Assembly (NCBI GenBank): GCA_902625895.1 | Contig: CACODD010000003.1 | Span: forward strand, 1 to 62,099 | Reading direction: 5' to 3' | Origin: an uncultured Alphaproteobacteria bacterium | GTDB lineage: Bacteria; Pseudomonadota; Alphaproteobacteria; Methylaequorales; Methylaequoraceae | Length of the DNA stretch: 62,099 nt | Shown: positions 1,558-20,645 of the stretch, piece by piece | How the letters are laid out: the number at the start of each line of letters is the position of its first letter | Numbering within the stretch: position 1 is the stretch's first letter | Translations under genes and position numbers: made by a program | Notes under the pieces: generated by a model | Databases searched by the model: none | The model's input: only the letters and a program-made list of their open reading frames with translations | Told to the model about the DNA's origin: nothing

Positions 1558-1637
1558 AGTTTCTAAACAATAGAGCTTTTAGCTAAATAAATTTCCTTTT
1601 AGGTCGTAAATATAATATTAACAGTGGTTCGTGGAAT

Positions 1638-4383: not shown

Positions 4384-5973
4384 ATGAAGTTTTGGTTTCA
4401 CATATTAAAAGAAAGTAACTCTCTAAATACTATTCTTTTATTGACTTTTTTTATCACTATAATGGGTTTATTAAGCCCAATCTTTATCATTCACATTTTT
4501 AATAGATATATCGCATTTGGCCTTCAGGGAACATTGTTTTTTCTATTATCAGGTGCTCTTTTAGTTGCAGTATTCGAGTATATATTTAGGAATATTAGGA
4601 GTAAAATCTTATGTGAACTTCTCATAAATCCAATAAAATTTTTTAAATTAGACCTAATCAAAACATTTTTTGAGAGAGAAAATAAAACCTCAAAAAGAAA
4701 TTTTGTTGAAATAATTGATTTCAACAATAATTTTTTTCAATTCTTATCACCTAAAGTTCAGTCAAATATTCTCGACTCAATTTTTGCAACTTTGATTATT
4801 ATTATTCTTTTTTTTCTGGACCTATTATTAGCAACAATTTTTTTAATTCTTGTTATTATTTTCTTGTTGTTGCAACAAAGATTAATAAAAAATAAAAATC
4901 TAAACCTGGAAAAATTAAATTTATCTAAGAATGATAAATTAATAATTAAAGAGATTGGAACTAATCAAGAGCTTTTAAAATCTACTTTAGCATTTAAATA
5001 TTCTGGATATTATCTAGAAAATTACTTAAATAAAAAATTAAAAATTGACTCTTCAACTGCAAATTTTGATGCTCAACAAATATCCACAACCAGTTTTTTT
5101 GTTTTGCTATCATCAATTATTACAATTGGATTTGGGAGTATCTTTGTCGTGAATGGGAATCTTTCTATTGGTAGCCTGATAGGATTCAACATATTTGCTA
5201 CTCGAGCTTTGGGTACAATTTCATCGGCACAAAATTCATATTCTATCATTGAGAGAACAAATATGTATCTTAATGATTGCCAAGATTTTTTCAAAAACTC
5301 TAAAAATAGAGTTGAGGGTATGCAACTAAGTAAAATTATAGGGAATTATAAACTTAAAAATATCAACTATTCTTTCGATAATGATAATAAGTATATAATT
5401 AAAAATTTCTCTGCTAATTTTAATTCTTCAGAAATTTCAGTTATTAGCGGAGCGAATGGCTCCGGAAAGACCACAATTGCAAAATTGCTCATGGGACTAA
5501 TTAATCCAGAATCTGGAGATATTTTATTAGATGAAACTAATTTGGAGAAACTATCATTGCAATGGTATAAGAATAAAGTAGCTTATATACCTGAAGATGT
5601 TGAAGTGTTAAATTCATCAATTTTAAATAATATTTTAATATCCAACCCTGATCTGAATGAACAAGAGGTTAGTAGACTGCTTCAAAATGTTGGATTAGAT
5701 AAAGAGTTAAAAAAATCAGATTTAACAATAACTGATTCTATAAATAAAAATTATTCAAAAGGGATTTTAAAAAAAATACATATTGCACGGTCGATTTCAA
5801 AAACCTATCAAGTTTATATTTTTGATGATCCGTTATTATATCTAGATAAATTAGGTAAAAATATGGTGCTGAAATTGATAGCCTCATTAAAAAGAGCTGG
5901 AAAAACCGTAATTTGTTTTTCAGAAGATTCTGAAATTATTAAACTAAGTGATAAACAAACTAATTTAGGGTGA
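4384..5973 (+). CDS. T1SS-type ABC exporter (TMD+NBD, no N-terminal peptidase/CLD domain) with non-canonical NBD motifs
   Basis: Hydrophobic N-terminal half. Walker A is GANGSGKTT. The signature position reads YSKGI, Walker B reads IFDDP and the H-loop position reads SED. It sits directly upstream of the HlyD gene. Confidence 0.8.
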   Translation: MKFWFHILKESNSLNTILLLTFFITIMGLLSPIFIIHIFNRYIAFGLQGTLFFLLSGALLVAVFEYIFRNIRSKILCELLINPIKFFKLDLIKTFFERENKTSKRNFVEIIDFNNNFFQFLSPKVQSNILDSIFATLIIIILFFLDLLLATIFLILVIIFLLLQQRLIKNKNLNLEKLNLSKNDKLIIKEIGTNQELLKSTLAFKYSGYYLENYLNKKLKIDSSTANFDAQQISTTSFFVLLSSIITIGFGSIFVVNGNLSIGSLIGFNIFATRALGTISSAQNSYSIIERTNMYLNDCQDFFKNSKNRVEGMQLSKIIGNYKLKNINYSFDNDNKYIIKNFSANFNSSEISVISGANGSGKTTIAKLLMGLINPESGDILLDETNLEKLSLQWYKNKVAYIPEDVEVLNSSILNNILISNPDLNEQEVSRLLQNVGLDKELKKSDLTITDSINKNYSKGILKKIHIARSISKTYQVYIFDDPLLYLDKLGKNMVLKLIASLKRAGKTVICFSEDSEIIKLSDKQTNLG

Positions 5974-5977
5974 AAAG

Positions 5978-7249
5978 ATGACAGAGAAATGGGTAAAATG
6001 GAATTTATTTAAAAACGATGAAAAACCAAAAAACGTTATTAGTAAAAGACTTAAAGTATCATTAATTCTTTTCTCACTTATTTTTTTGCTACTAGTGAAT
6101 TTAAAAATTATTGAGGTATTAAGCTTAGCTGACGGAAAAATAATACCCCAAGGAAGAATGAAGTATGTACAACATTTGGAAGGTGGAATAGTTGAAGAAA
6201 TATTAATTAGTGAAGGTGAAAAGGTTGAGATAAATCAACCTTTGGTTATTTTATCGAAAGAAAAAGCAAGCTCTGAATTTGAGGAGATTAACTCAAGACT
6301 TAAATCAATTGATCTGTCGATACTAAGAGTTAATTCTGAAATAAATTCTAATAATTCAATAGAAATTCCTGAAAATAAAAATGACTTATTTGATGAGGAA
6401 TTAGTAAAATCTGAAAATGAACTTTTTCAAAGTAGAAGAAAAGCAATCAACTCTGAAATAAAGTCAAAGAAAGCAAGTATTGATAAAGCTAATAAAAATC
6501 TCAAAAATTTAAAAAAAAGATTAACAATCGTAAAAGAACAAGAAGATATCAGTCAAAAATTATTAGAAGTCGAGGCAACAAATAGGTTAAAGCATTTAGA
6601 AATTTTAAGAGAAAGGCAAGAGGTTGAAGGAAGTATCGACGAACAACAATCTATAATTGATTTGAGCAAGAATGACTTAGAAAAAGTGCAAAACAATTAT
6701 ATAGAAGAATTAAATATCGAGTTGTCACAGTACAAAAAAGAAAAAGAGGAACTTAATAAAAGAATTCAGAAATATTCAGACAGCTTAAATAGAACCGTTT
6801 TAAAAAGCCCTGTATCTGGAACAGTAAAACTTGTGTCAGTAAATTCTAAGGGAGCTATAGTCGCTCCTGGCGTGACTGTTGTTGAAATTGTACCTGAAAA
6901 TGAAAAACTAATAATTGAGGCAAAATTACCTTTATCAGAAATTGGATACGTAAAAAAAAATCTTGAAGCAAAAATTAGACTGAATACACCTGAAGGCTCT
7001 AGGTTTAGATCAATAAAAGGGAAAGTTGTATTTGTAGGCGCTGACAGAATTTCTGGTAAAGATGAAGAGGGTTTTTATTTAGTCAAGGTGGAAACCTCTG
7101 AAAACTCTTTTGCACGAAAAAACGAGGAATATAAACTTTTGTCTGGTGTTCCAGTTATGGTTGGTATTATAACTGGTAAAAGAAGTTTTATGGATTATTT
7201 CTTAACGCCTTTTATAACCGGTGCAAGCTTTGCATTATCTGAAAGGTAA
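5978..7249 (+). CDS. HlyD-family type I secretion membrane fusion (periplasmic adaptor) protein
   Basis: N-terminal TM segment, GKIIPQGR..VQHLEGGIV lipoyl-like start, long coiled-coil region, and C-terminal SGTV..PG..V.IVP and GKRS..DYFL motifs typical of T1SS adaptors. Confidence 0.85.
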   Translation: MTEKWVKWNLFKNDEKPKNVISKRLKVSLILFSLIFLLLVNLKIIEVLSLADGKIIPQGRMKYVQHLEGGIVEEILISEGEKVEINQPLVILSKEKASSEFEEINSRLKSIDLSILRVNSEINSNNSIEIPENKNDLFDEELVKSENELFQSRRKAINSEIKSKKASIDKANKNLKNLKKRLTIVKEQEDISQKLLEVEATNRLKHLEILRERQEVEGSIDEQQSIIDLSKNDLEKVQNNYIEELNIELSQYKKEKEELNKRIQKYSDSLNRTVLKSPVSGTVKLVSVNSKGAIVAPGVTVVEIVPENEKLIIEAKLPLSEIGYVKKNLEAKIRLNTPEGSRFRSIKGKVVFVGADRISGKDEEGFYLVKVETSENSFARKNEEYKLLSGVPVMVGIITGKRSFMDYFLTPFITGASFALSER

Positions 7250-7250
7250 A

Positions 7251-7550
7251 TTATTTTACAGAAGATTTGGAAATTGTTTCAGATTTGAAAATTACGCCGT
7301 TTTTTTGAGAATTGAGTTTTAAATGTTTGTAAAGCTCATCAAAAATAACATTTCCTTTTCTTTCTTTGACAATGAGAGTAAGAATGTCTGCTTCACTAGC
7401 ATCACCAAATTGCTGTATGTCAAACATATCTGTGGCTCTACCATTAGCATAACCGACTGAAATAACGTCTGAGTTTTCAGAAAACTTTTTAACAACTTTT
7501 TGTCCTAAACCTTTTTTTATTAAGCCACCAATTTCAACAAACTTTGACAT
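7251..7550 (-). CDS. Small hypothetical protein, possibly a second divergent PII-like partner
   Basis: 99-aa ORF 2 nt downstream of the PII-like gene. The C-terminal ILTLIV..GVIFKSE pattern loosely resembles the PII beta-alpha-beta fold. The functional call is weak. Confidence 0.45.
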   Translation of the reverse strand: MSKFVEIGGLIKKGLGQKVVKKFSENSDVISVGYANGRATDMFDIQQFGDASEADILTLIVKERKGNVIFDELYKHLKLNSQKNGVIFKSETISKSSVK

Positions 7551-7552
7551 AT

Positions 7553-7909
7553 TTATCCTCCAGCTCGTTTAATGACATCTTTAGGTATATATGTCGCAAC
7601 TCTGTCAAGTTTAACCATCCACATTATGCCTTTACCAGGTGTATCAAGATTTCCGGCTAAATACATTGATTCAAAGACTCTGTTCGATTGTTCTTTAGAA
7701 ACTATAATTCTTATTATTTCTTTTTGTTCATCTATAGTTACTCCAAGAAGTCCCATTCTATCCCTAATGCCTGTACCCCTGGCATAATTAATTGTTGCAC
7801 CTTGGGCTCCAACACTGGTGGCAGCATCTATGATTTTGTCGGCTAGACCACTTTCAACAACACAAGTGATTAAAAAAACGTCTGTTAAATAAGTGATATC
7901 TCTGGCCAT
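7553..7909 (-). CDS. PII-like (GlnB-fold) signal transduction protein
   Basis: 118 aa. The layout (FLITCVVESGLADKIIDAA..GAQGATI..ARG.G, ..IIRIIVS......VFESM...) matches PII-family proteins that accompany DUF1538 membrane proteins. Confidence 0.65.
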   Translation of the reverse strand: MARDITYLTDVFLITCVVESGLADKIIDAATSVGAQGATINYARGTGIRDRMGLLGVTIDEQKEIIRIIVSKEQSNRVFESMYLAGNLDTPGKGIMWMVKLDRVATYIPKDVIKRAGG

Positions 7910-7925
7910 AATTTTTTCCTTTTAG

Positions 7926-9623
7926 TTATTTTTTTTGTTTAAATTGTATATATAGTCCCATTAGGAGTACAGCAAGAATTGGACAAATACTTGCCATTGA
8001 TAGAATACCAAAACCTTCAGTGGCGGATACAGCATTTCCTAGACCCAGACCCATAGCCAGAACAAGTGGTACGGTTACCGGGCCGGTTGTGACTCCAGCG
8101 CTGTCCCAGGCGACATTAACAAATTCTTCAGTTGAAAAGTAAGTTAAAATAATTGCAAGAAGATAAAGTGGTATTAAAACGGTTGCTAAGTCAAAAGCAA
8201 ATACAATTTTTCCAACACCTAAGGCTATCCCAAATGCAACACCCCCGGCAACGCTATACATTAACATTGACTTTTTGAAAGCACCATTGGTAAGCTCTTG
8301 AACTGTCAAACCAAGGGCATTAAGTGCTGGCTCAGCAAGTGTTGCTCCAAATCCTAAGAGCCAAGCAAAAAGAATTACTATAGTTAAACCCAATAATTCG
8401 TTATAAATTGGTGATACTTCACTTATTGGGACTTCCATAAAGGCAGCAGGAAGATTGGTTCCAGCTTGTCCACCTATAGCTCCTAAACCATATGTGAGTC
8501 CTATATTGAAGACACACATCCCAACAATGGACAAAGTTAACCCATAAGTTGTTATCATGTTGTTAGGAAGTTTAGATCTAAGGATTATAAAAAGCACAAT
8601 CATTAAAAATATCACAAGTGGAAGTATCGCTCGAACTCCTCCAATAATTTCAACAAACGGGGTTTGTGACCATTTAGAAACCTCTCCTATGGTCATATCT
8701 GAAACCATACTAGTCGAAGCAATTATTTCCTCAACTGAGATTGTCTGAGAAACATGTATAGCGAGAATCAGAACAGCTATAATTGGAAATAATGAAGCCA
8801 TTGTAACGACGCCGAAACCAGAAAGAGATGAATCTCCTTTACCAGCTGATGCTGCAATTCCAATACCTAGTGATAGCACAAGAGGTACAGTAACTGGTCC
8901 AGTTGTAACAGCACCACAATCCCAAGCTAATCCGAGAATAGTTCTTAAATCAGGATTACTCCATACATATGCAGTAAGAATTATTGTTGGTGTAAGAGCT
9001 GCATAAATCATAGGTTTTAGAGACCAACCTTTGACAAACCTAATCGTTCCAATTATGGCTGCTAGTCCAACACCAGCACCGACCATTACAACTAAGGTTT
9101 CACTTCTATTATTTAGTATCTCATACAGATACGGTGCGTCCTGAGGGTTTATTGATGAACCAAATGCTTTGAGTGCTCCAATAGCTGGTTCCGCATAAGT
9201 TACCCCCACCCCAAGTATTCCAATAATAATTAAAACAAGAACCATTGGTGCTTTTTTTGGTAATGTATCACCAATTACATTGCCAAATGGCATTAAACCG
9301 GTTTTAAGACCTTCCATAAAAATTGCTAGGCCTATTATTACTGCAATTAATCCTAGACAAATTGTTGTCGCTGAAGAGATTGGTTGTCTTAAAATTAAAA
9401 GTTGAAACAGAAATAAATATGCTGCAAGTGGAACAACAGCTTTAATTTGTTCCATAACTCTAGAAATCGTGTAAGGTGCTAATAAAGTAAGTGCCTTGGC
9501 AGGTGATACTTTTATTTTCTGAGGCTTTAGTGATTTTCCTTTAGCTGCCTTCGGCGTAAGAAGGTTATAACTTAAAGATTTATGATTTATCTCTGATTCG
9601 TGAATGTAATCGGAATATTTCAT
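7926..9623 (-). CDS. Polytopic membrane protein with internal duplication (two DUF1538-like halves)
   Basis: The motif AWDCGAVTTGPVTVPLVLSLGIG recurs as AWDSAGVTTGPVTVPLVLAMGLG about 270 aa later. The protein has many TM segments. Confidence 0.7.
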   Translation of the reverse strand: MKYSDYIHESEINHKSLSYNLLTPKAAKGKSLKPQKIKVSPAKALTLLAPYTISRVMEQIKAVVPLAAYLFLFQLLILRQPISSATTICLGLIAVIIGLAIFMEGLKTGLMPFGNVIGDTLPKKAPMVLVLIIIGILGVGVTYAEPAIGALKAFGSSINPQDAPYLYEILNNRSETLVVMVGAGVGLAAIIGTIRFVKGWSLKPMIYAALTPTIILTAYVWSNPDLRTILGLAWDCGAVTTGPVTVPLVLSLGIGIAASAGKGDSSLSGFGVVTMASLFPIIAVLILAIHVSQTISVEEIIASTSMVSDMTIGEVSKWSQTPFVEIIGGVRAILPLVIFLMIVLFIILRSKLPNNMITTYGLTLSIVGMCVFNIGLTYGLGAIGGQAGTNLPAAFMEVPISEVSPIYNELLGLTIVILFAWLLGFGATLAEPALNALGLTVQELTNGAFKKSMLMYSVAGGVAFGIALGVGKIVFAFDLATVLIPLYLLAIILTYFSTEEFVNVAWDSAGVTTGPVTVPLVLAMGLGLGNAVSATEGFGILSMASICPILAVLLMGLYIQFKQKK

Positions 9624-9660: not shown

Positions 9661-10128
9661 TTATTCAACATGACTTGTTGACCTCTCTAATCTGTAAAGA
9701 ATTTGTTTTGTTATTTTTTTTATTATTTGATTCTCTGACTCTATTATCTGATCTATTTCATCATGTGAATAAAGTACATTTTGAAACTCATTTCTTTTAG
9801 CAAGTTCTTTACATAAATTTAAAATTACCTTTTGGGCGGCCTTTGAACCAGAATTAATTAGCTCATCAAGATTTTCTTTACTAATAGATATTAACTCTGT
9901 AGATTGAGCTGATGTAATAGTTGCACTTCTGTTTTGTTTTAATATCAAAGCCATTTCACCAAAAACCTCTCCATCTCTCATAGATCCAACTTTTTTTCCG
10001 TCAACTAGTACATCAAGGACTCCAGAAACTATCATGTATGCTTTATCACCTTTGTCTCCTTGATTAAAAAGCGTCTCACCTTCTAACATCAAAATTTTTG
10101 TTGTTTTTCCATGACTAACTTCTTTCAA
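9661..10128 (-). CDS. Stand-alone cyclic-nucleotide-binding domain protein
   Basis: The phosphate-binding cassette FGEMALILKQNRSATITS is present. A short helical tail (QILYRLE) follows and there is no HTH. Confidence 0.8.
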   Translation of the reverse strand: MKEVSHGKTTKILMLEGETLFNQGDKGDKAYMIVSGVLDVLVDGKKVGSMRDGEVFGEMALILKQNRSATITSAQSTELISISKENLDELINSGSKAAQKVILNLCKELAKRNEFQNVLYSHDEIDQIIESENQIIKKITKQILYRLERSTSHVE

Positions 10129-10565
10129 GAAAATATCCTTTGAGATAATCTATAGTGAATCTGTAAAGCTAAAGCTCTTATTACGTTAGGAGAGTCCTTA
10201 GTTAGCTTTACAAGATCGGCTTTGGTAACTGGAAGTTTTTGGTTATCGGATTTTCCTAATTCCTTTGACATTTCATTAATTACTTTATGAAGATCTATGT
10301 TGGAGGATAATAAAATAGCTTCCAACGCCTTTCTTTTTATTTCAACGATTTCACTTGGTACAATAGCTTTTATACTCGCAGTTCTATTTTCATTAAGAAT
10401 TAAAGACAATTCTCCAAAGATTTCACCTGTTTCAATTTTCCCTATTTTTTTTCCTTCAATTTCTGCAACTAATCCACCTGAGACAACTAAAAAGGCTGTT
10501 TCTCCTTTATCTCCCTCTCGAACAATATATTGATCTGGAAGAACTCTTATCTTTTTTAAACTCAT
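10125..10565 (-). CDS. Stand-alone cyclic-nucleotide-binding domain protein (paralog of the next gene)
   Basis: FGELSLILNENRTASIKA cassette and a QIHYRLS tail. It overlaps the downstream paralog by 4 nt (ATGA). Confidence 0.8.
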   Translation of the reverse strand: MSLKKIRVLPDQYIVREGDKGETAFLVVSGGLVAEIEGKKIGKIETGEIFGELSLILNENRTASIKAIVPSEIVEIKRKALEAILLSSNIDLHKVINEMSKELGKSDNQKLPVTKADLVKLTKDSPNVIRALALQIHYRLSQRIFS

Positions 10566-10578
10566 TTAAACCTTTTTT

Positions 10579-12954
10579 TTATTTAGAAGTTGCAACAAAA
10601 ACACCATCCCAATCTTTTGGGGGAGGATGCTTTTTATATTCATTAATTCTTTCTGTCATCATTTCATAGTAATCTTTCATTAAACTTTTACAAAGTGTTT
10701 TTGCCTGAGTCATTTCCTCGATAGCATCTTTCCAATTTTGATTAAAATAGAGATTTAAAACATTTTTATGCTTTTTTTCAAGATTTTTGAAATCAACACT
10801 ATTTTTAAAACTTGGATCACCAAGCAAACAAAAAATTGATACAGCTTCTTTTTTTCCTTTTACTGCTAACATATCAAGTTGGAGCGTAGCATAAGTATCT
10901 TTAACAGCATCGTTTGTTTCTTGCCCAATAACTGTTTTAACTCCATAACCTTTTGATTGACCTTCAAGACGTGATGCTAGATTGACTGCGTCTCCCAATA
11001 CTGAATAGTCAAATCTTTGATCTGACCCCATATTTCCAACAACACAACCTCCAGTATTTAGTCCAATTCCAATTTTCAATTCCAAAAAATCTTTATTTTC
11101 TGACTTTGCTTCCTGTTCTCTTATATCGTTAAGTTCCTTAAGTGCTTTGTGCATGCTCAATGCTGCTTCACAAGAAACTTGCTCGTGTTTATCGACATCT
11201 ATAGGTGCATTCCAAAAAGCCATAATACAATCACCCATATATTTATCTATTGTTCCATTTTTATTTATGATTTCATTTGTAAGAGGAGTTAAAAATCTAT
11301 TTATAAGTTTTGTAAGGCCTTGAGGATCGGATTTAAAAGCTTCTGAAATTGTTGTAAAACCTCTTACATCACAAAAAAGAAATGTCATTTTTTTTGTTTC
11401 TCCACCCAACACTAATTTATCAGGATCTTCAGCTAATTGCTCTACTAAAGCAGGGGATAGATATTGAGAAAATGCACCCCTTATTTGTTTTTTCTCATTG
11501 GCATCTCGTAAGTAGTTTGCAAAGGTGTTACTAAAATAAATTACAAAAGTTGTTACACCTGCAAAGGTTGGATCAAATAAAGTTTTATGTTCAGTAAATA
11601 ACCTTACACTAATATAAAATGCAGAACTTATTATGGTTACAAGTAATGAAATATTTACAATTGGACCAAACCTTAATGCAGACACTGTAATAAATAATGC
11701 AAGCAAAATTGTAAAGAGTGCTTCATAAAATTTCATATTTGCACCAGATTTCAAAAAAGGTGATCCTGAAATTTTAACTTTGTTTTTTTCAATTATTGCT
11801 TCTTCTTCACTTAAACCTTTTTTTAATGCTTCTTTATAAACTTTTTCAGAATTTTTTGTAGATGTATAATAAAGAATTGCTGAAATGACTGTATCAATAA
11901 GATTTGCATGAATTTCAACACCTGGCATTCTTTCATCGACTGGAGTGGGTCTAATATCCTTTAATCCAGTGGCCGATGTGCCTAATATACCAAGTTTTCC
12001 TTGTAATCTATCTTTGCCAACCCTTCCTTTAATTATATCCACTGCACTTACATAATATCTTGATTTACCTTCTTTAACTTTTCCAGCATCTGAATCACCA
12101 TAATAAATCCACACTCTACCATTCTCATCAGTCGGAATAGCAGCATTACCAATAGCTTTAGTTTGAATTATTATTTCTTTAATTCCCGTCAAACCTGTCC
12201 TAGTGGCAATACTATTTCCTTGAAACGCAACCCTTATCATATCAAGTCCAAGAGTTGGTCTGATTTCACCTGCAACATTTGATATTAAGGGTACTCTTCT
12301 AATAATTCCATCTGGTTCCTGTGCAACTGAAACTGTACCAGATCCAGAGGCAGCTTTTTCAAACTCTGTCACATTAGCAAGTAATCCAGGATAAGATATC
12401 AACCATTCCTTTGGATTTTTACCTTTGCCAACAAAAACTTTTACAGATGAATCGTTTATATCATTTCTGTTTGCATCACCTTCTACATCCAAGCCAGAGT
12501 GCCCGATTACTACAGGAAAGTCACTCATAGCTTCAGTGGCTAAAAACTCATTAGAAGGAAGTTCACTTAATAATTTTGCAATAGTTGGATTTCGTTTTTC
12601 TAAATCTTGAGAAATTAAGTCAGGTGAAGTTCTGTCTTTTTCTGCAAAGAGAACATCTAGACCTAAAACAAGCATACCTGACTCTTTAGATTTTTTAAAA
12701 AGATCAGCAAGTACAGTTCTTGGCCATGGCCATTGACCGATTTCTCTTAGAGATTTTTCGTCAATATCTACAATTACGGAGTAAGTTTGACCGTCTGTAG
12801 ATCTTGGAAATTTTTTTTGAAGAACATCAAAATATTTAAGTCGTAGAACTTCTACTATTTCAGGATCAGCTATTCGAATCAAACCAAAAAGAATTGCCAT
12901 TACTAAAGAGGCAATAGTAACAATAAGTCTAAAACTTAGCTTTAATTTAATCAT
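10579..12954 (-). CDS. CHASE2-domain class III adenylate/guanylate cyclase (Lys/Asp pair suggests adenylate cyclase)
   Basis: N-terminal TM, a large periplasmic-type domain, then 3 TM segments. The catalytic domain reads FLFCDVRGFT..DKYMGDCIMAFWNAP..FDYSVLGDAVNLASRLE. Confidence 0.9.
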   Translation of the reverse strand: MIKLKLSFRLIVTIASLVMAILFGLIRIADPEIVEVLRLKYFDVLQKKFPRSTDGQTYSVIVDIDEKSLREIGQWPWPRTVLADLFKKSKESGMLVLGLDVLFAEKDRTSPDLISQDLEKRNPTIAKLLSELPSNEFLATEAMSDFPVVIGHSGLDVEGDANRNDINDSSVKVFVGKGKNPKEWLISYPGLLANVTEFEKAASGSGTVSVAQEPDGIIRRVPLISNVAGEIRPTLGLDMIRVAFQGNSIATRTGLTGIKEIIIQTKAIGNAAIPTDENGRVWIYYGDSDAGKVKEGKSRYYVSAVDIIKGRVGKDRLQGKLGILGTSATGLKDIRPTPVDERMPGVEIHANLIDTVISAILYYTSTKNSEKVYKEALKKGLSEEEAIIEKNKVKISGSPFLKSGANMKFYEALFTILLALFITVSALRFGPIVNISLLVTIISSAFYISVRLFTEHKTLFDPTFAGVTTFVIYFSNTFANYLRDANEKKQIRGAFSQYLSPALVEQLAEDPDKLVLGGETKKMTFLFCDVRGFTTISEAFKSDPQGLTKLINRFLTPLTNEIINKNGTIDKYMGDCIMAFWNAPIDVDKHEQVSCEAALSMHKALKELNDIREQEAKSENKDFLELKIGIGLNTGGCVVGNMGSDQRFDYSVLGDAVNLASRLEGQSKGYGVKTVIGQETNDAVKDTYATLQLDMLAVKGKKEAVSIFCLLGDPSFKNSVDFKNLEKKHKNVLNLYFNQNWKDAIEEMTQAKTLCKSLMKDYYEMMTERINEYKKHPPPKDWDGVFVATSK

Positions 12955-14675
12955 GGTTCTGCAAAACTATTACCAAGAGTTCTTATGAGTGGATAAATAA
13001 AATACGTAATTAATCTTCTTTGCCCAACTCTAAACTTTCCTGAAACTTTCATTCCTGGCATTAAATTAAATCCTGGAGGAATATCTTTTAACTCATTTTC
13101 TGTTATTTGAGCCCTAGCTCTATAAAAATTTCCAGGTTTTCCATCGACATCTTTATCAATTGTGTCAGCAGAAACATAAATAAGCTTTCCTTTTAATTCA
13201 CCATGTTTTTGTGCTGGAAGAGCATTAAGTTGAATTTTAACAGATGTATCCGGAATTAGTTTACTAATATCAGAAGGGTCAACATCAAAAACAGTTAATA
13301 ACTCCACACCTGTTGGTACCAATGTTACAACACTTTTACCTGGTGTTATTACTGCTCCAGGGTATAGAGAATGAAGGTCTAGAATCATTCCGTCAGAAGG
13401 CGCTCTGACCACGACATCAGTTTGTTGTCTTTCAAGTTTTTTAACATCCTCTTGTAGCGACATTCTTTGATCTTCTAACCCAACAAGCTCATCGTTTATT
13501 CCTCCAAAAAATTGGCTGTTATATTCTTTTCTATTAGATTTTAATTCGCTTAGTTTATTGCTAGTTTTTGTAAATTCTTTTTCTAAAGATAACCTTTTAT
13601 TTTTTTCAGCTAAAACTTGTGACTCTGCTACAAGATCAAGTTCAAACAACTCCAACTTTGAATCTTCCAGCTGTTTTTGTATATCAAGTTGTTCCTTGAT
13701 AAACTTTAAATCGTCTTCAGTGGAACCTATTTGTTGATCTAATGAAGCAATCTTTGCTAAATATTGGTCTTTTTTATCTTTAAAGATTCGACTTTGTCTT
13801 TCGTCATTTGGATTTGCAACCGAAACATTATTTCTTAACAATGACTGCTTTCTTAGTCTATCAATTTTTGAATTTACAACTGAAAGCTGATAATCAAGTT
13901 TCATTTTATCGGCTCTTTGTAGTGTAGCATCGAAAGTTACGAGTGGGTCTCCTTGATTTACACTCTCGCCTTTTTTTACAAGTATTTCTTTGACAACAGA
14001 ATTATAGTTTGATTGTACCTCTACATTTGGGACAACGGTGGTAATCTTTCCAGAAGCAGAAATTGTAGTGTCAATTTCCGAAATAGTGCCCCAAGTAATT
14101 AAAAATAAAATAAGGAAACCAAATGAATAGACTGACATTTTTACTGAACTTGGTACCTGCTTTGTTTTAATTCTATCAATGTCGTCATCAAATTCATCTA
14201 ATAATTCACTCATCATTTTTTTTTTTGATCTATTTTCTTTTTCTTCCTCAGTTAAAACTTCTTCTTGATCTTTGTTATTCTCATTTTCATTTCCAGATTC
14301 AAAAGCATCCACAGATAATTTTTCGTTTGCATTTCTGGCATAGCTTGCAAGTTGCTGCATCATATTGAAAGCTGTTTGTGGAGAGTTTTTGAGATATCCT
14401 AGTAAAGCATTTTGATCAATTTCTTTTACCGTTGTCTCAACTGTCGCTCTTGCCATTGCACTTCTTGGTTGTTTGTCAATTAATGCCATTTCTCCAAACA
14501 ACGCACCTTTTTCAAGTATTGACAGAGTTACGTATTCGTCACCGTTGAATTTGCATACCTCTATTTTCCCTTTTACTATTTGATAGGCATAGTCACCAAC
14601 TTCACCTTCTCTAAAAAGCACATCACCAGCAGCTAAATTTCTAACAGCGGGTTGAATATTTTTTTTTTCAGCCAT
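12951..14675 (-). CDS. HlyD-family T1SS adaptor with N-terminal cyclic-nucleotide-binding domain
   Basis: Residues 1-125 form a cNMP domain (FGEMALIDKQPRSAMARA). An acidic linker and a TM follow. The rest has HlyD features (GKITTVVPN, coiled coil, GMILDL..PGAVITPG, RRLITYFIYP). Confidence 0.85.
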   Translation of the reverse strand: MAEKKNIQPAVRNLAAGDVLFREGEVGDYAYQIVKGKIEVCKFNGDEYVTLSILEKGALFGEMALIDKQPRSAMARATVETTVKEIDQNALLGYLKNSPQTAFNMMQQLASYARNANEKLSVDAFESGNENENNKDQEEVLTEEEKENRSKKKMMSELLDEFDDDIDRIKTKQVPSSVKMSVYSFGFLILFLITWGTISEIDTTISASGKITTVVPNVEVQSNYNSVVKEILVKKGESVNQGDPLVTFDATLQRADKMKLDYQLSVVNSKIDRLRKQSLLRNNVSVANPNDERQSRIFKDKKDQYLAKIASLDQQIGSTEDDLKFIKEQLDIQKQLEDSKLELFELDLVAESQVLAEKNKRLSLEKEFTKTSNKLSELKSNRKEYNSQFFGGINDELVGLEDQRMSLQEDVKKLERQQTDVVVRAPSDGMILDLHSLYPGAVITPGKSVVTLVPTGVELLTVFDVDPSDISKLIPDTSVKIQLNALPAQKHGELKGKLIYVSADTIDKDVDGKPGNFYRARAQITENELKDIPPGFNLMPGMKVSGKFRVGQRRLITYFIYPLIRTLGNSFAEP

Positions 14676-14680
14676 TTAAA

Positions 14681-16852
14681 TTACCCGGCCTTTTTTAAAG
14701 ATTTAATTTTGTTTTCAACACCTAAAATAGACATTTGCTTATTATACGTCTTACCAAAATAGCCTGAGGTCTGTCTAAGTTCTTCAAAAGAACCTTGTTG
14801 AGATATTTTTCCTTTTTCAAGTACAAAGATTTTATTACAAAGTCGAAGGTGCCAAACTCTGTTTGACACGATAATAATCGTTCTACCAAGAGCAATATCT
14901 GATAATGCATCATATAATTTTATTTCACTATCAACGTCAAAACCTGTGAAAGCATCATCTAGTATCATGATACGAGGGTTTCTAATAAGTGCTCTAGCGA
15001 TTGCTAGTTTCTGTCTTAAACCAGTTGCTAGGTTTGTAGCGTTTTCTTCAAGAAATGTTTCATATCCATCGGGATAAGACTCTATTTCTTCATGCGCAAA
15101 AACTTTTTTGGCAGCCCACGTTATCCTGTCCATAGAAGAATTTGGCATTGCACTTGCTATTGTTTCTCTTATTGTTCCAGGAAAAAAATAACTATCTGTT
15201 CCGACCAATGAAACCTGTGATCTTACATGACTAAGGTCCAGTAAACGAAGATCTATATTATCAAGGGCTACGATGCCAGCTTGCGGTCTATACAAACCTT
15301 GAATCAGTTTTGCAATGGTACTTTTCCCACAGCCACTTTTACCAGTGATACCAATTATTTGTCTTGGATTAATTTCAATATCAACATCATTTAATACTTT
15401 TGTATTATCGTCGTAGCCGAACTCAACATTTTTAAAAGTAACCTGTCCCATTAGTTGAGGTTTTTGGCCCTTAACAGTTGTTTCGGAGTTTGCATCCACT
15501 ATTCCTGATATGATCTGAAGAGACTGAACTAATTTTGTTATTTCTGTTTTAAGAGTAACTAGATCAATTATTGGTTTTGAAACTCTGCCGGCTAGCATAT
15601 TAAAACCTACTAAAATTCCAGCTGAAAGAGAACCAGAAAATACAAGATGCACCCCAACAAAAATGACCATCGCTGTCATTAGTTGATTTATGGTTGATGA
15701 AATGTTGTTTAAAACTGCTGACTTTTTTTGCATTTCTTCATTTGCAATAATATAATTAGCTTCCAAATCTCTCCACTGATCTTTTAAATTAGGCTCAAGA
15801 GCAAGTCCCTTTACATTCTCAATTCCGTTAACAGCAACAGAAATAAATTCTTGTCTTTTTGATTCAGCCTTACTTAAACCAGCGAGTGAGTCTCTTTGTT
15901 TTTTCGAGTAAAACATTGATGCTAAAGCTCCTAAAATACTGAATGAAAACACAACAATAAATAGTAATGGACTATAAAAAAATAAAATTGGAACAAAAAC
16001 AAGTAAACTAATTGAGTCTAGTGCTGTTGAGAAAACTTTTTGAGTCAGAAGGCTTTTGATCTGAGATATTTGACCTGTGAATCTCAAAAAAGTTGCTGAT
16101 TCTTTGTGAAACCTTTGCATTGGTAAAGCAATTAATTTTTCAAAAACTTTAACTGAAAGTTTGGCTTCAACTTTTTGTGAGAAAAAATCAAGAAGATATG
16201 ATTTTAAATACCCAAGTATTCCATTAAATACATACGCAACAACTACACCTGAAGTTATAACATATAAAGTTGAATAAGCTTCATAGTTTACAACCTTATC
16301 CAAAACTAACATCATGAAAACAGCCGGTATAACTGCGAAAATGTTTAAAATCAAAGCTACGATTACAACTTGAACCATAACAGATTTGTTCCTAAATGAC
16401 TCGCCAATTAACCATCCAATTTTTAATTCGCTGTCTTCTTCGAATTTTTTCAGTTTAGCTTTAAGAAGTATTACTTCTCCGTTCCAGCCTTTTTTTAATT
16501 CTTTTAAATTAATTTGTTGAGGTTTAGGACTGGTAACACCAGTATCAAGGCATAAAACTGACTTATCATCATCTTTTTCACCTTGAATAACTCTTAAAGC
16601 TATTATGTATCTTCCATTTTTAAGTCTTAAGATTTGTTGTTTTTTAGATAAGAGCTTTACTAGTTCTTTATCGCTAATTTTGGTTGCTTTTGCTTTTAAA
16701 TCAAAGGATTGAGCTAGTTCACACATTTCAGTGGTTCTAAGCTCTCTATCTTCAATTTGAAATCTTTCTGGAATATCATTTGGACCAATATGAACCCCTA
16801 GTTGTCTTGCAACTAGAATAATTGATTTTTGAGAACCTCGCATCGCTTCCAT
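14681..16852 (-). CDS. HlyB-like T1SS ABC exporter with N-terminal C39-like domain (no catalytic Cys) and non-canonical NBD motifs
   Basis: The N-terminus aligns by eye with the HlyB CLD (GPNDIPERF, LKAKATKISDKEL, GRYIIALRV). Walker A is GKSGCGKST. The signature reads LATGL, Walker B reads ILDDA and the H-loop reads SNR. Confidence 0.9.
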   Translation of the reverse strand: MEAMRGSQKSIILVARQLGVHIGPNDIPERFQIEDRELRTTEMCELAQSFDLKAKATKISDKELVKLLSKKQQILRLKNGRYIIALRVIQGEKDDDKSVLCLDTGVTSPKPQQINLKELKKGWNGEVILLKAKLKKFEEDSELKIGWLIGESFRNKSVMVQVVIVALILNIFAVIPAVFMMLVLDKVVNYEAYSTLYVITSGVVVAYVFNGILGYLKSYLLDFFSQKVEAKLSVKVFEKLIALPMQRFHKESATFLRFTGQISQIKSLLTQKVFSTALDSISLLVFVPILFFYSPLLFIVVFSFSILGALASMFYSKKQRDSLAGLSKAESKRQEFISVAVNGIENVKGLALEPNLKDQWRDLEANYIIANEEMQKKSAVLNNISSTINQLMTAMVIFVGVHLVFSGSLSAGILVGFNMLAGRVSKPIIDLVTLKTEITKLVQSLQIISGIVDANSETTVKGQKPQLMGQVTFKNVEFGYDDNTKVLNDVDIEINPRQIIGITGKSGCGKSTIAKLIQGLYRPQAGIVALDNIDLRLLDLSHVRSQVSLVGTDSYFFPGTIRETIASAMPNSSMDRITWAAKKVFAHEEIESYPDGYETFLEENATNLATGLRQKLAIARALIRNPRIMILDDAFTGFDVDSEIKLYDALSDIALGRTIIIVSNRVWHLRLCNKIFVLEKGKISQQGSFEELRQTSGYFGKTYNKQMSILGVENKIKSLKKAG

Positions 16853-16884: not shown

Positions 16885-16917
16885 AAAAAAAAAACCCCCT
16901 TAGAAACTCTAAGAGGG
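16885..16917 (-). terminator. Rho-independent terminator between the P/G/M/D-rich gene and the ABC exporter gene
   Basis: Minus strand: CCCTCTTAG-AGTTT-CTAAGGGGG (9-bp stem with one G-U) followed by T10. Confidence 0.75.
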
Positions 16918-16941
16918 TTTTTTATCTATAGAAGTATAGGT

Positions 16942-18102
16942 TTAAACTACCTCACCACCGTCATTTGGGTCGTCTGGTGGCGGAGGTACATCGGCTGGCA
17001 TATCACCAGGCATTGGCCCAGGATCTCCAGGAGGAGGCCCTTCTGGACCTTGATGTGCTCCTGCATCGTCCATGTGAGTATGCATATCACCCATTCCATC
17101 TGGAGGAGGCATATCACCTGGACCACCAGGTCCGCCATCCATTGGCCCTGGTTGACCCATCGGATCACCTGGAGGCATATCACCTGGTGGCGGTCCACCA
17201 GCTGGCCCACCTTCACCAAATAATGGATCTGGCCCTTCACCACCAGGAGGTGGCGGAGGCATTCCGTCTCCATCCATATCCATGCCTGGAGGTGGTCCGT
17301 CAGGTCCCATTGTCCCTGGTCCCATATCAGGAGGAGGAGTTCCTGGTCCGAATTCTGGTCCACCTGCCATATCACCTGGAGGAGGTCCATCTGGTCCTGG
17401 CCCAAAACCGCCCTCTGGATTAGGTGGTTCTCCCATAGGAGGTCCCATTGGTTCTCCATCTGGTCCAAAAGCTGGCCCATCTGGTTGAGGTCCGCCTGCC
17501 ATATCACCTGGAGGAGGTCCGTCTGGTCCCATTCCGCCTGGTCCCATATCACCTGGAGGAGGTCCGTCTGGTCCCATTCCACCTGGTCCCATCTCACCTG
17601 GAGGAGGTCCATCTGGTCCCATTCCAGCTGGTCCCATATCAGTCATTGGTCCTGGTTCCCATGCACCTGGCATAGCACCAGGATCGAATTCTGGTCCACC
17701 TGGAAAATCACCATAAGGTGGTGCTCCATCCATCATTGGACCAAAATCCTCTGGTGGTGGAGGGAAATCGCCTGCCATGTCCATACAAGGCATATCACCG
17801 GGAAACTCTGCCATATGAAAATCTAACGCACCGCCAACAGCATCAAATGCATCCATTGGAGGTGAATCAGGATTTGCTGCCATATGAGCATCAAAAGCAC
17901 CCTGTGCAACGTCTGCGATATTATCCATCATTTCTTTTGGCATACCAGCATCCGCCATAAAATTCATTGCTGCTCCCATACCTTCTCCGAAGGCTGCACT
18001 AGGGTCAGCAGCGAAGTCAGCCGCTTGAAATGGACCCATAGCTGCATCGCCAGCGGCTTCAGCAAAAGCTTCCATTTCAGGTGGCAAAACAAATTCTGCC
18101 AT
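16942..18102 (-). CDS. Pro/Gly/Met/Asp-rich low-complexity protein (no signal peptide, no RTX repeats); possible T1SS cargo
   Basis: 386-aa ORF with AAGGA 8 nt upstream of the ATG. The N-terminal about 110 aa are non-repetitive. The rest is built from GPDGPPPGDMGPGGM-type repeats. A terminator follows immediately. Confidence 0.75.
   Translation of the reverse strand: MAEFVLPPEMEAFAEAAGDAAMGPFQAADFAADPSAAFGEGMGAAMNFMADAGMPKEMMDNIADVAQGAFDAHMAANPDSPPMDAFDAVGGALDFHMAEFPGDMPCMDMAGDFPPPPEDFGPMMDGAPPYGDFPGGPEFDPGAMPGAWEPGPMTDMGPAGMGPDGPPPGEMGPGGMGPDGPPPGDMGPGGMGPDGPPPGDMAGGPQPDGPAFGPDGEPMGPPMGEPPNPEGGFGPGPDGPPPGDMAGGPEFGPGTPPPDMGPGTMGPDGPPPGMDMDGDGMPPPPPGGEGPDPLFGEGGPAGGPPPGDMPPGDPMGQPGPMDGGPGGPGDMPPPDGMGDMHTHMDDAGAHQGPEGPPPGDPGPMPGDMPADVPPPPDDPNDGGEVV
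17495..17641 (-). repeat. About three tandem 45-bp units encoding GGMGPDGPPPGDMGP
   Basis: Units at 17495-17539, 17540-17584 and 17585-17629 are near-identical. A partial fourth follows, and dispersed copies occur elsewhere in the ORF. Confidence 0.85.
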
Positions 18103-18215
18103 AATAAATTCCTTTATTAAATTGTAAGATTAAATTGTGTTAATACTTTAAAAAGTCGATACAGTCTAGTTTAACAATATTTTATTTTTTTATTTTAAGC
18201 AAGCTTTAATTAATT

Positions 18216-19541
18216 TTACTTTTCAATTGTTTCGAAATTGAGAATTCCGCATAGTTTTAATAATTCGAAGGATGAAATAATAAGTTGATATTGTGCGTTC
18301 ACTAAATTTGATTCAGAATTTGTTAGTTCTTTTTGTGCATCTAAAATTTCTAATGTTGTTCTGGTACCAACACTTGCTTCTTTAGTTACTCCCTCAACTG
18401 CCATTAAATTTGACTCAACCGAAACCTCAAGAGAATCTATACTTGATTTTGAACTTTCTATTTTCTTCCATGCCGAATTAATTTGAAATTGTAAGTCAAG
18501 TTTTTTTGTCTCAATTGATTTAATGACGGTGAGAGCAGAATCTTTGGATTTTTCTAAATTCAAAAAATTATGTCCTTTGTTAAATAATGGAACTGTAACA
18601 TTTGCAGTTACTGAGAATGAATCTGTTCTTTCAACCGTTCTTGAGGAATCAAGTGATTTTCCTACTGAACCAGACAAAGAAAATTCTGGTGCAAAATTTA
18701 AATTATTTTTTCTTACATCCAATTTTGAGTTCATAAGTTGTAATTTTAATTTTCTATAATCTGGGTTCTTTTCTAAGCCTGTTTTTATTGAATCGTCCAA
18801 AGATTTTGGAAGTTTTGGTATTTGACCAAATTTTAACCAATCTTTTGGATTGGCGTCGACAATTTGGGCATTATTGGAATCAAACCATTTAATATCCGGA
18901 TCTCTTCCGACAATTGTTTTAAAATCAGAAATTGAAATTTCTAAGTTATTTTCAGCCTCTATTCTCTTTGAAGTAGCACCTGCTAATCTTGCTTTAGCCT
19001 GAAAAACGTCAGTTTTAGTAACATCTTTAAATTCGAATCGCTTTTCTGCAGCATTTAGTTTTTTTTCAAGAGTTTCTTCGTTCCTTTTTGAAACATCTAA
19101 AAGAAAATAATCCTTTAGAACAGTATAATAGGCTTTACTAGCTTTAAATAAAACATCTTGGACTGTTGCGTAAAAGGTTAACTTTGCGATGTTCACGTTA
19201 TTTTTAGCTTGCTTGAAATTTATAGCCTTTGTGTAACCTAAAGGTTGAGATAAATCTAAGTCGAACGTAGTTGGGTTGATAGCGCTATCATTAATTCGAG
19301 ATGTATCAGGGTTGCTTTTTGAAATTTTCCTTCCTTGTGATGCAGATAAATCAAGAGATGGTAGAAAATCTGTTTTTGAAATTTTTAAATCTTTTTCTGA
19401 AATTTTCAGTTCTGTTTTACTTTTTTCAATGTCGGGATAAAACTTATATGCATCTTTTAAAACATCGGAGAGTTCTTCAGAAATTGAAATAATAGGAAAA
19501 AATATTGATGCTAAGATAGCCAGATTAAGTTTGGATTTCAC
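18216..19541 (-). CDS. tolC: TolC-family outer membrane efflux/secretion protein
   Basis: Signal peptide, two-repeat architecture, typical N-terminal L.D.L..AY..YPDI and LPSLDLSAS motifs, 441 aa. Confidence 0.85.
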   Translation of the reverse strand: MKSKLNLAILASIFFPIISISEELSDVLKDAYKFYPDIEKSKTELKISEKDLKISKTDFLPSLDLSASQGRKISKSNPDTSRINDSAINPTTFDLDLSQPLGYTKAINFKQAKNNVNIAKLTFYATVQDVLFKASKAYYTVLKDYFLLDVSKRNEETLEKKLNAAEKRFEFKDVTKTDVFQAKARLAGATSKRIEAENNLEISISDFKTIVGRDPDIKWFDSNNAQIVDANPKDWLKFGQIPKLPKSLDDSIKTGLEKNPDYRKLKLQLMNSKLDVRKNNLNFAPEFSLSGSVGKSLDSSRTVERTDSFSVTANVTVPLFNKGHNFLNLEKSKDSALTVIKSIETKKLDLQFQINSAWKKIESSKSSIDSLEVSVESNLMAVEGVTKEASVGTRTTLEILDAQKELTNSESNLVNAQYQLIISSFELLKLCGILNFETIEK

Positions 19542-19667
19542 TTTTAAATTTCCATTTCCTCAAATTTATTTAATATTAAAGTAACTTCGAATTAACAACA
19601 ACATTTAAAACAAAAATTTAAATTTTTCGCTTTTAATTCACCAATTCATATATTATAAGCAGATTAT

Positions 19668-19744
<77 letters not shown>

Positions 19745-19790
19745 TAAAGTTTTTGGAAAGCATTAATATTGACCTTTATGGGAGAAAGTT

Positions 19791-20399
19791 ATGTTTAAAA
19801 ATTATTTTGTTGCAATTTTTATCAATGTAATTGGATTTTCCGCTTCTGCAAACGATTATTTTAAAGCTCTAGAGCTTTTTAATAAAAAAATGATAGAACA
19901 AGCTATAATTCACTTTAAGAAAGTTGCTGAAGATGAAAATAATGAAAAAAGAAGTGATGCTATGTTTAATATTGCTTTGATTTATGACAATGGTTTTGGG
20001 ATACAAACTGATAAAACTAGAGCACTTTATTATTACGAATCAGCTTCACAACTATCAAATAAGTATGCTTTATTTAATTTAGGTTGGATGTACTATAATG
20101 GAGAAAACGTTAACAAAGACGTTTTCAAAGCATTCGAATTATATAAAATGTCTTCAGACTTCGGTCATCCGAGAGCTATGTATAATTTAGCTAATATGCA
20201 TTTTACAGGAACGGGAACTGTTAAAGATTTAAAAATGGCTTATAAATTATTTTTGAAATCTAAGATGCATGGAATCAAAGAAAGTGAATATTTTATTGAA
20301 CAAATTGCAATTTCTTTAAAACCTGAGGAGTTAACTCTACTTAATAAAGAGTTTGAATCATTGATAGAAAAAAAGATTGTTTTACCTCCTATAAATTAA
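19791..20399 (+). CDS. Sel1-repeat (TPR-like) secreted protein
   Basis: Signal peptide plus repeated A...Y..ga..G...A.fnLg.mY..G motifs (NIALIYDNGFG, NLGWMYYNGENV, NLANMHFTGTG). Confidence 0.8.
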   Translation: MFKNYFVAIFINVIGFSASANDYFKALELFNKKMIEQAIIHFKKVAEDENNEKRSDAMFNIALIYDNGFGIQTDKTRALYYYESASQLSNKYALFNLGWMYYNGENVNKDVFKAFELYKMSSDFGHPRAMYNLANMHFTGTGTVKDLKMAYKLFLKSKMHGIKESEYFIEQIAISLKPEELTLLNKEFESLIEKKIVLPPIN

Positions 20400-20645
20400 A
20401 TATATATCTTACTAATACTAATATTAAGTAAAATGAAATTAGGAAGCATAGAATAACTTTTGAAAACTTATTTTTTTTAAACTTTAAAAAAAATTTGTAA
20501 GTCAGGTATGTATCAATAATTGCAAGTATAAATGCCAAAAAGTAGATATTCATTTAATAAATAAACTATATTATTAAAATAAATTTTTATAAATATAGTT
20601 TTTTGTTATATTTAAACTAATTCCTCCCCAATATAAATCATATTA

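Follow-up and report, generated by a model that had tools for sequence, protein, structure and literature searches.

What does a type I exporter do once the residues expected to hydrolyze ATP have been replaced, and which protein does it move? The question is raised by a gene at 14681-16852 on the minus strand of a 62,099-nucleotide contig (CACODD010000003.1 of assembly GCA_902625895.1, from an uncultured alphaproteobacterium of the Methylaequoraceae), a stretch that was analyzed over its whole length and is referred to here as the window. Judged from its sequence, the gene product is an HlyB-like ATP-binding cassette (ABC) exporter with a non-catalytic C39-like domain and degenerate ATPase motifs. 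It belongs to a distinct, conserved and apparently undescribed branch of type I secretion that is widespread in ocean bacteria. On comparative grounds, three features mark out the branch: the ABC signature has been lost, the HlyD-family adaptor is fused to a cyclic nucleotide monophosphate-binding domain (cNMP::HlyD), and an upstream gene encodes an acidic protein rich in proline, glycine, alanine and methionine and nearly free of lysine and arginine (K/R). We think it rather probable that the exporter is the inner-membrane part of a cyclic AMP (cAMP)-gated type I secretion system with little or no ATP turnover, and that it exports this upstream K/R-poor protein.

The 723-aa open reading frame (ORF) is a genuine gene, its upstream extension being blocked by a stop codon. 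Pfam recognizes Peptidase_C39 (E 1e-5), ABC_membrane (E 1e-32) and ABC_tran domains in the product, and a phmmer search of the PDB aligned residues 13-694 with Escherichia coli HlyB (7sgr/8dck) at E 3e-101. The exporter can be divided as follows, where dN/dS is the ratio of nonsynonymous to synonymous substitution rates.

16433-16852, minus strand: non-catalytic C39-like domain, residues 1-140 (Pfam, HlyB alignment, AlphaFold model and match to 3zua)

15473-16432, minus strand: six-helix ABC exporter transmembrane domain (TMD), residues 141-460 (ABC_membrane match, alignment to the HlyB TMD, dN/dS 0.02-0.06)

14681-15472, minus strand: nucleotide-binding domain (NBD), residues 461-723, with the stop codon (HlyB alignment, orthologue conservation, dN/dS)

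This order of an N-terminal C39-like domain, a type IV exporter TMD and a C-terminal NBD is that of the HlyB type (TIGR01846), and an HlyD-family adaptor and a TolC-family channel are encoded in the same cluster, as is expected of a TIGR01846-type operon. The score against TIGR01846 itself was 491.9 bits, under the cut-off of 725.55, and every other NCBIfam model likewise scored below its cut-off.

An earlier note, made from the letters of the window alone, had proposed that four ATPase motifs differ from those of HlyB, and formal alignment to HlyB bears out each of the four substitutions, with no canonical residue at any of these sites. The Q-loop VVLQDN of HlyB reads LVGTDS (Q to T552), the signature LSGGQRQR reads LATGLRQK, the Walker B segment ILIFDEAT reads IMILDDAF (E to D633), and the H-loop IIIAHRL reads IIVSNRV (H to N664). 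The exporter thus has neither the Q-loop Gln, the LSGGQ signature, the Walker B Glu nor the H-loop His. In contrast, Walker A is unchanged (GKSGCGKST versus GRSGSGKST in HlyB), and the A-loop Tyr480 and the Walker B Asp are kept.

The same note had described the N-terminus as C39-like without a catalytic Cys, and this too holds. In the alignment, Gly6 occupies the position of the Cys, Tyr82 that of HlyB His83 and Leu75 that of HlyB Trp77, leaving no Cys/His/Asp triad of the kind found in the C39 peptidase transporters (PCAT/AMS). An AlphaFold model of residues 1-145 (pLDDT 85) has as its top structural match the C39-like domain of HlyB, 3zua (E 2e-7, TM-score 0.73), followed by a second C39-like domain and then by true C39 peptidases. 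The Trp77-His83 stacking pair has been described as characteristic of C39-like domains, and the association of these domains with repeats-in-toxin (RTX) cargo has been given as a rule (PMC8277102). The domain studied here shares with the RTX-type domains a fold without the catalytic Cys; it has neither the Trp77-His83 pair nor an RTX-repeat cargo next to it.

Whether the altered motifs are a passing defect or a fixed trait was addressed with 120 listed relatives (80-98% identity), all drawn from marine metagenomes or single-cell genomes with an Alphaproteobacteria or Rickettsiales label, which together with the window protein make 121 sequences. In all of them the signature reads x-S/A-T-G-L, Walker B has D-D and the H-loop has Asn664, whereas S, A or T stands at the Q-loop position. 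There is likewise no variation in Walker A or at Tyr480 of the A-loop, Gly6, Tyr82 and the D-loop Asp. Nonsynonymous divergence (dN) was 0.03-0.17 against saturated synonymous divergence (dS), with dN/dS below 0.1 in each of the C39-like domain, the TMD and the NBD. Because the altered ATP site is fixed across the clade under strong purifying selection, it appears to be actively maintained rather than decaying, and this same invariance and low dN/dS exclude a pseudogene or a sequencing error. The conservation check that the earlier note had called for therefore came out in favor of its substitutions.

When the exporter and the adaptor served as queries in homologue searches, only this clade was returned, and more distant relatives were obtained by an exhaustive search of 1.84 billion cluster representatives and by a metagenome scan. 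Beyond the clade, the motifs of the closest relatives (40-29% identity) are degenerate too, and all nine of the closest non-clade representatives by TMD identity are without SGGQ. Walker A itself is lost in two relatives, P0122 (GSSGTEKAA) and P0123 (ADNPKTASA), neither of which has a second ABC gene nearby. A cNMP::HlyD gene follows the exporter in all seven relatives that were looked up (P0121, P0122, P0123, P0128, P0135, P0145 and P0164); it also follows P0124, which has canonical motifs. The control P0130 combines canonical motifs with a plain HlyD and an ordinary K- and R-containing cargo.

The metagenome scan, seeded with the degenerate set, yielded 80 loci at 31-100% identity to P0121. 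The signature was non-canonical in 72 of 75 loci, cNMP::HlyD lay immediately downstream in 58 of the 61 with downstream sequence (0/2 of those with a canonical signature), and a K/R-poor acidic ORF lay upstream in 45 of the 63 with upstream sequence (0/3 with a canonical signature). Among the 72 degenerate-signature members, Walker A is intact in 69 and the Q-loop Gln is present in 10. At the Cys, His83 and Trp77 positions of the C39-like domain, the 80 distant members never have Cys, His or Trp. Named members of this subfamily come from Rhodospirillaceae and Gammaproteobacteria metagenome-assembled genomes and from Tara sequences, and the clade of the window stands at its more degenerate end. 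Within the literature that was searchable, we found no description of a cNMP-binding type I adaptor, of type I secretion linked to CHASE2 or cAMP, or of the cargo family.

The gene preceding the exporter encodes its likely cargo.

16942-18102, minus strand: putative cargo, a 386-aa acidic protein rich in proline, glycine, methionine and aspartate, encoded at the same position and in frame in all orthologous loci

The earlier note had remarked that this neighbor has no RTX repeats, and a search of the protein and its counterparts for such repeats gave neither a HemolysinCabind match nor a GGxGxD motif. No Pfam or NCBIfam family matches the protein, and none of its distant counterparts has a Pfam family. 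With 1 lysine, 0 arginines and a net charge of about -66, it begins with a helical domain, continues with PPPGDMGPGGMGPDG repeats that vary, and closes with a conserved C-terminus whose end reads ...MHTHMDDAGAH...PPPPDDPNDGGEVV. Across the clade, the number of PPPGDMGPGGMGPDG-type repeats varies, non-repeat motifs are conserved, and the proteins have 0-1 Lys/Arg per 250-405 residues and net charges of -50 to -79. For the N-terminal domain, the predicted structure is a helical bundle (pLDDT 76) for which Foldseek found no PDB fold match (E above 6). Between proteins whose N-terminal domains share only 45% identity, the C-terminal 55 residues still share 98%, a pattern of conservation that fits a C-terminal secretion signal. 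The termini read …GGEVV, …DDVV and …DDIV in the clade and …EDVV, …NDIV and …CGMV in distant loci, and are reminiscent of the protease-type type I substrates, which end in acidic and then hydrophobic residues. Across the subfamily, the cargos run from 250 to 800 aa, and their conserved element is C-terminal, not an N-terminal leader of the double-glycine type.

Distant cargos are unlike the window protein in sequence and alike in their theme of composition, some being made of MPPEAMQGMDADMM repeats. The 49 cargo ORFs, 15,402 aa in all, contain 42 K+R against 2,967 D+E, and are composed of 16.5% A, 15.6% G, 15.2% P, 12.9% D and 11.8% M, with 0.1% each of K and R. A new class of G/P-rich cargo, one of two options raised in the earlier note, is thus strongly supported, acidic P/G-rich and K/R-poor proteins being encoded directly upstream of the exporter in relatives down to ~30% identity that are without RTX genes nearby. 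The possibility that the G/P-rich frame is an artefact of repeats was excluded; the ends of the P/G frame, which lie outside the repeats, are conserved from species to species, and transcription of the gene is strong. The overlapping ORFs at 16947-17612 (minus), 16965-17423 (plus) and 17485-17826 (plus), as well as those at 331-919 on both strands, are by-products of GC-rich repeats and not genes.

Several further observations concern the cargo. In natural populations the repeat array at 17100-17640 is highly polymorphic, with numerous in-frame skips or duplications of 90-430 nt in RNA and DNA contigs. Two types of N-terminal domain share one C-terminus, and both types stand in tandem in one genome (L119, 7451-9893). 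The cargo ORFs of the distant loci L092, L098, L099 and L103 contain dozens of MPP[ED]AM[QG]GMDADMM[AS]A repeats and are very rich in Met, with at most one K or R. In the closest non-clade locus, L027, copper-homeostasis genes (17671-20494) for an HMA chaperone, a P-type ATPase with an HMA domain and a cupredoxin lie within 3 kb after the module; they could be a pointer to the function of the cargo, or chance.

The cargo gene forms a very strongly transcribed unit that ends in a terminator. In four ocean metatranscriptomes, RNA depth was 360-1170 on the cargo and 0-20 on the exporter, adaptor, cyclase and TolC genes, a contrast of about 100-fold, with the reservation that depths taken from assembled contigs are a crude measure and that the cargo gene is partly repetitive. 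Cross-mapping of repeats as the source of the high RNA depth can largely be rejected. In two samples with paired runs, DNA depth was flat (11-89) where the cargo reached an RNA depth of 345-1625, with 0-13 next to it, and the 5' portion of the gene that has no repeats is high as well. Six metatranscriptomes in all show the contrast.

16889-16923, minus strand: strong intrinsic terminator lying after the cargo stop codon and before the start of the exporter gene, a 16-pair stem followed by a T run

The ~100-fold drop in RNA after the cargo is attributed to this terminator. The genes hlyA and hlyB are also parted by a terminator, an arrangement that the cargo and exporter genes mirror. A scan for promoter consensus sequences, uninformative in such AT-rich DNA, returned 26 sites versus 35 expected.

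Cargo and exporter genes form part of a longer minus-strand run in the order TolC, cargo, exporter, cNMP::HlyD, CHASE2 cyclase, two cNMP-binding proteins, DUF1538 protein and PII-like protein, and this gene order is common to 18 species-level genomes of the clade. The members not yet introduced are:

18216-19541, minus strand: TolC-family outer-membrane channel, first gene of the cluster and the sole outer-membrane protein gene near either exporter of the window (Pfam OEP, E 8e-57)

12951-14675, minus strand: HlyD-family membrane fusion protein with a cytoplasmic N-terminal cNMP-binding domain (cNMP_binding, E 1e-19, and HlyD_3; TIGR01843)

10579-12954, minus strand: fusion of a CHASE2 sensor and a class III adenylate cyclase (CHASE2, E 3e-46; Guanylate_cyc, E 2e-19), syntenic in 18 genomes

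10125-10565, minus strand: stand-alone cNMP-binding protein of 146 aa (Pfam cNMP_binding, E 3e-15), syntenic

9661-10128, minus strand: stand-alone cNMP-binding protein of 155 aa (Pfam cNMP_binding, E 7e-18), syntenic

7553-9623, minus strand: DUF1538 membrane protein (7926-9623) and PII-like protein (7553-7909), the end of the same-strand run (Pfam)

The adaptor scores 222.6 bits against TIGR01843, above the cut-off of 208.65. Its cNMP-binding domain spans aa 1-125 (nt 14301-14675), and a K/R-rich segment precedes a single transmembrane helix at about aa 178-200, so that the N-terminus is predicted to be cytoplasmic. Based on Pfam and alignment to the cNMP domains of PKG and CRP, its phosphate-binding cassette is intact (FGEMAL...RSA; FGEMALIDKQPRSA), as are the cassettes of the two small cNMP-binding proteins (FGELSL..RTAS and FGEMAL..RSAT). 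The top PDB match of the cyclase is Pseudomonas aeruginosa CyaB (3r5g, E 2e-33), and alignment to this structure shows that it keeps the two metal-binding Asp, the substrate-specifying Lys/Asp and the transition-state Asn/Arg. The TolC-family protein reached 222.5 bits against TIGR01844, slightly short of the cut-off of 225, and the position of its gene is kept in 14 genomes.

Comparison with known systems leads to the conclusion that this one functions like, and descends from, HlyB/HlyD/TolC. It shares with HlyB/HlyD/TolC and with LapB/LapC/LapE the order of C39-like domain, TMD and NBD, the best sequence and structure match, an HlyD-family adaptor, a TolC and an upstream cargo gene. Unlike HlyB systems, it has four non-canonical ATPase motifs, no Trp77-His83 pair, a cNMP domain on the adaptor, and a cargo without RTX repeats and nearly without K/R. 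The cyanobacterial NHLP/Nif11 exporters (TIGR03796, TIGR03797 and TIGR03794, with the accessory TIGR03896) belong to the same ABC superfamily and also have a link to a cNMP domain. However, they pair an active C39 peptidase with small GG-leader cargos, whereas here there is no triad and the cNMP domain is on the adaptor, and scores against the NHLP models fell far under their cut-offs (330 versus 853, and 29.9 versus 161). TM287/288, TmrAB, TAP and CFTR offer a parallel for the altered ATP site, having a Walker B Glu-to-Asp change, a lost switch His, a non-canonical signature and stable ATP binding at the degenerate site (PMC7756269). In contrast to the present case, in which all changes fall in one half-transporter with no partner in the locus, TM287/288-type exporters keep one catalytic site. 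For the cargo, the Met/His/Asp-rich, copper-binding segments of the periplasmic proteins CopA, PcoA and CueO provide a likeness in composition only (Met 11.8% and Asp 12.9% across the cargo ORFs, MHTHMDD in the window protein, MQGMDADMM in L092 and L098), with neither sequence homology nor a family match. Motifs rich in Met, His and Asp bind many copper ions (PMC3847284).

The mechanism that we propose would begin with the CHASE2 cyclase making cAMP, which would bind the cytoplasmic domain of the adaptor and license assembly or opening of the channel. The cytoplasmic region of HlyD senses substrate and triggers TolC recruitment. ATP binding by the NBD has probably been retained, given that Walker A, the A-loop and the Walker B Asp do not vary. 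Turnover would be slow or absent, because in a homodimer both sites would be without signature, catalytic base and switch His. As such, ATP may serve as a ligand for dimerization or gating and not as fuel. The degenerate sites of other ABC exporters hold ATP for minutes and have structural roles (PMC7756269), and in HlyB both H662 and E631 are essential for ATP hydrolysis (PMC6222333). The C39-like domain would be a docking or chaperone site for a non-RTX cargo, which would leave unfolded and C-terminus first through the exporter, the adaptor and TolC. For a polyanion with a net charge of -50 to -80, the driving force may lie largely in the inside-negative membrane potential and in the binding of external cations; these could do the work because the cargo is nearly without positive charges. 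The fullest form of this proposal, with no hydrolysis at all, opening by cAMP, export of a K/R-free polyanion driven by potential and cations, and a cargo whose gene ranks with the most strongly transcribed of abundant ocean bacteria and which serves as an extracellular ligand for copper or another metal and is missed by trypsin-based proteomics, is in our estimate distinctly unlikely to be right in every part.

A second type I system lies in the window and is convergent to the main cluster.

4384-7249, plus strand: second type I system, an ABC exporter without an N-terminal domain (4384-5973) and an HlyD-family protein (5978-7249) (Pfam/NCBIfam)

Two RTX proteins, at 91-1557 and 1638-4331 on the plus strand, are co-oriented and contiguous with this ABC and HlyD pair, and the second exporter is their natural exporter. 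The mismatch of cargos described in the earlier note stands in part. The gene adjacent to the exporter with the C39-like domain is indeed non-RTX, and the two RTX proteins do adjoin the exporter without such a domain. The oddity of the latter was overstated, since RTX cargo beside a PrtD/AprD-type exporter lacking a C39-like domain is a normal pairing (PMC8277102). Like PrtD, AprD and HasD, the second exporter has no N-terminal domain; it differs from them in its degenerate motifs. Across its 529 aa, the Q-loop Q is E, LSGGQ is YSKGI, the Walker B E is D (DD) and the H-loop H is E, with Walker A intact, and its orthologue in L119 (82%, from the same clade) has LSKGV, IIDDP and no His. These are the only two ABC NBDs in the 62-kb window, and by their motifs both type I exporters of the organism have non-canonical ATP sites. 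No further TolC gene was found near the second system, which may share the TolC of the main one. As to the RTX proteins themselves, the 488-aa protein has a G/P-rich, repeat-bearing N-terminal half, and the 897-aa protein has an N-terminal module resembling FecR and the LapA retention module (a weak match) and an acidic PE-rich linker. A 2640-aa protein near the exporter module in L036 (11547-12906) shares that FecR/LapA-like module.

A number of observations weigh against an exporter that turns over little or no ATP under the control of cAMP. The catalytic Glu is kept in 59 and the switch His in 38 of the 72 degenerate-signature members, and hydrolysis may persist in much of the branch, because E to D is a conservative change and many members keep Glu or His. 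Adjacency to a cyclase is confined to this clade plus the loci L037 and L093, and no cargo-like ORF was found upstream in 18 of the 63 loci. The net charge of the C39-like domain and TMD is the same as in canonical relatives, giving no signal of adaptation to a polyanion, and the reservation noted for the RNA depths applies here as well. A conventional ATP-driven HlyB-type exporter, in which the substituted residues hydrolyze enough and the cNMP domain only tunes the rate, would accommodate the retention of Glu by most of the subfamily, together with the invariance of Walker A, the A-loop Tyr, the Walker B Asp and the D-loop Asp and the strong purifying selection on the NBD. We regard it as rather unlikely all the same, given that four catalytic motifs are changed together in a presumed homodimer and that relatives with the same operon are wholly without Walker A. 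The loss of the switch His by itself inactivates HlyB (PMC6222333). Another reading makes the protein the degenerate half of a heterodimer with a competent partner elsewhere in the genome, as in RtxB/RtxE and the two-subunit NHLP exporters. Heterodimeric exporters with one degenerate site are common (PMC7756269), and one distant locus, L042, has a canonical ABC and HlyD convergent to the module. Yet all degenerate features are on one polypeptide, so that pairing it with a canonical partner would still leave both composite sites impaired. The other ABC of the window is itself degenerate and is kept so in its orthologue. Another ABC lies within 6 kb in three of the 80 metagenome loci (L042, L061 and L091), L061 having a canonical signature, which leaves only 2/72 among the degenerate-signature loci. 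A heterodimer therefore seems highly doubtful.

The other two alternatives concern the cargo. The earlier note had allowed for cargos crossed between loci, such that the exporter with the C39-like domain would secrete the RTX proteins at 91-4331 and the G/P-rich protein would be exported otherwise or not at all. C39-like domains do correlate with RTX cargo (PMC8277102), one RTX protein has the weak LapA-like retention-module match, and a single TolC is probably common to both systems. Nevertheless, the RTX genes are contiguous and co-oriented with an ABC and HlyD of their own, the C39-like domain is without the Trp77-His83 pair of RTX-type domains, and the trio of cargo, exporter and cNMP::HlyD recurs in distant loci with no RTX genes nearby, so that crossing is unsupported and in our view very improbable. 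Scarcely credible is a system that exports no protein at all, either a pump for cAMP or a pure signalling device, with the G/P-rich protein remaining cytoplasmic and disordered. The operon is certainly rich in cNMP parts (the cyclase and three cNMP-binding domains), and TolC-dependent efflux of cAMP is known in E. coli. On the other hand, the TMD and C39-like domain of the exporter are of the protein-exporter type, a cargo-like gene with a conserved C-terminal end is kept in the hlyA position, and most loci are without a cyclase. We therefore retain the cAMP-gated exporter with little or no ATP turnover as the probable account of the locus.

The surroundings of the cluster add a few observations of their own. 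The pair of DUF1538 and PII-like genes also adjoins the exporter/cNMP::HlyD module in the distant loci L036, L074, L076, L079 and L099, which are labelled Gammaproteobacteria, and this suggests that the pair is functionally tied to the module. A scan of the locus for regulatory RNAs and riboswitches returned two tRNAs only. One of these, a tRNA-Pro(UGG) at 19668-19744 on the plus strand, lies between the TolC and Sel1 genes and ~1.6 kb from the cargo gene; the latter is 25% proline, with 54 CCA and 38 CCT codons. A ~50-fold spike in metagenome DNA depth at the tRNA is due to cross-mapping of a conserved tRNA. The secreted Sel1-repeat protein (19791-20399, plus strand) is divergent from TolC and present in all clade genomes, and in L027 a Sel1/ankyrin-repeat protein (6763-8715) is encoded just upstream of the module.

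For the biology of type I secretion, the branch challenges two rules, namely that ATP hydrolysis by a homodimeric ABC protein powers secretion and that a C39-like domain implies an RTX cargo. Members without the catalytic Glu and His, or even without Walker A, are natural mutants for parsing the parts played by ATP binding, hydrolysis and membrane potential, and through a cNMP-binding adaptor a second messenger would switch a secretion machine directly. The cargo represents a very highly transcribed, unannotated family in widespread marine Alpha- and Gammaproteobacteria. It is probably under-reported in metaproteomes, because a protein with almost no K/R gives no tryptic peptides, and with its Met/His/Asp-rich composition it lends itself to tests of a role in metal binding.

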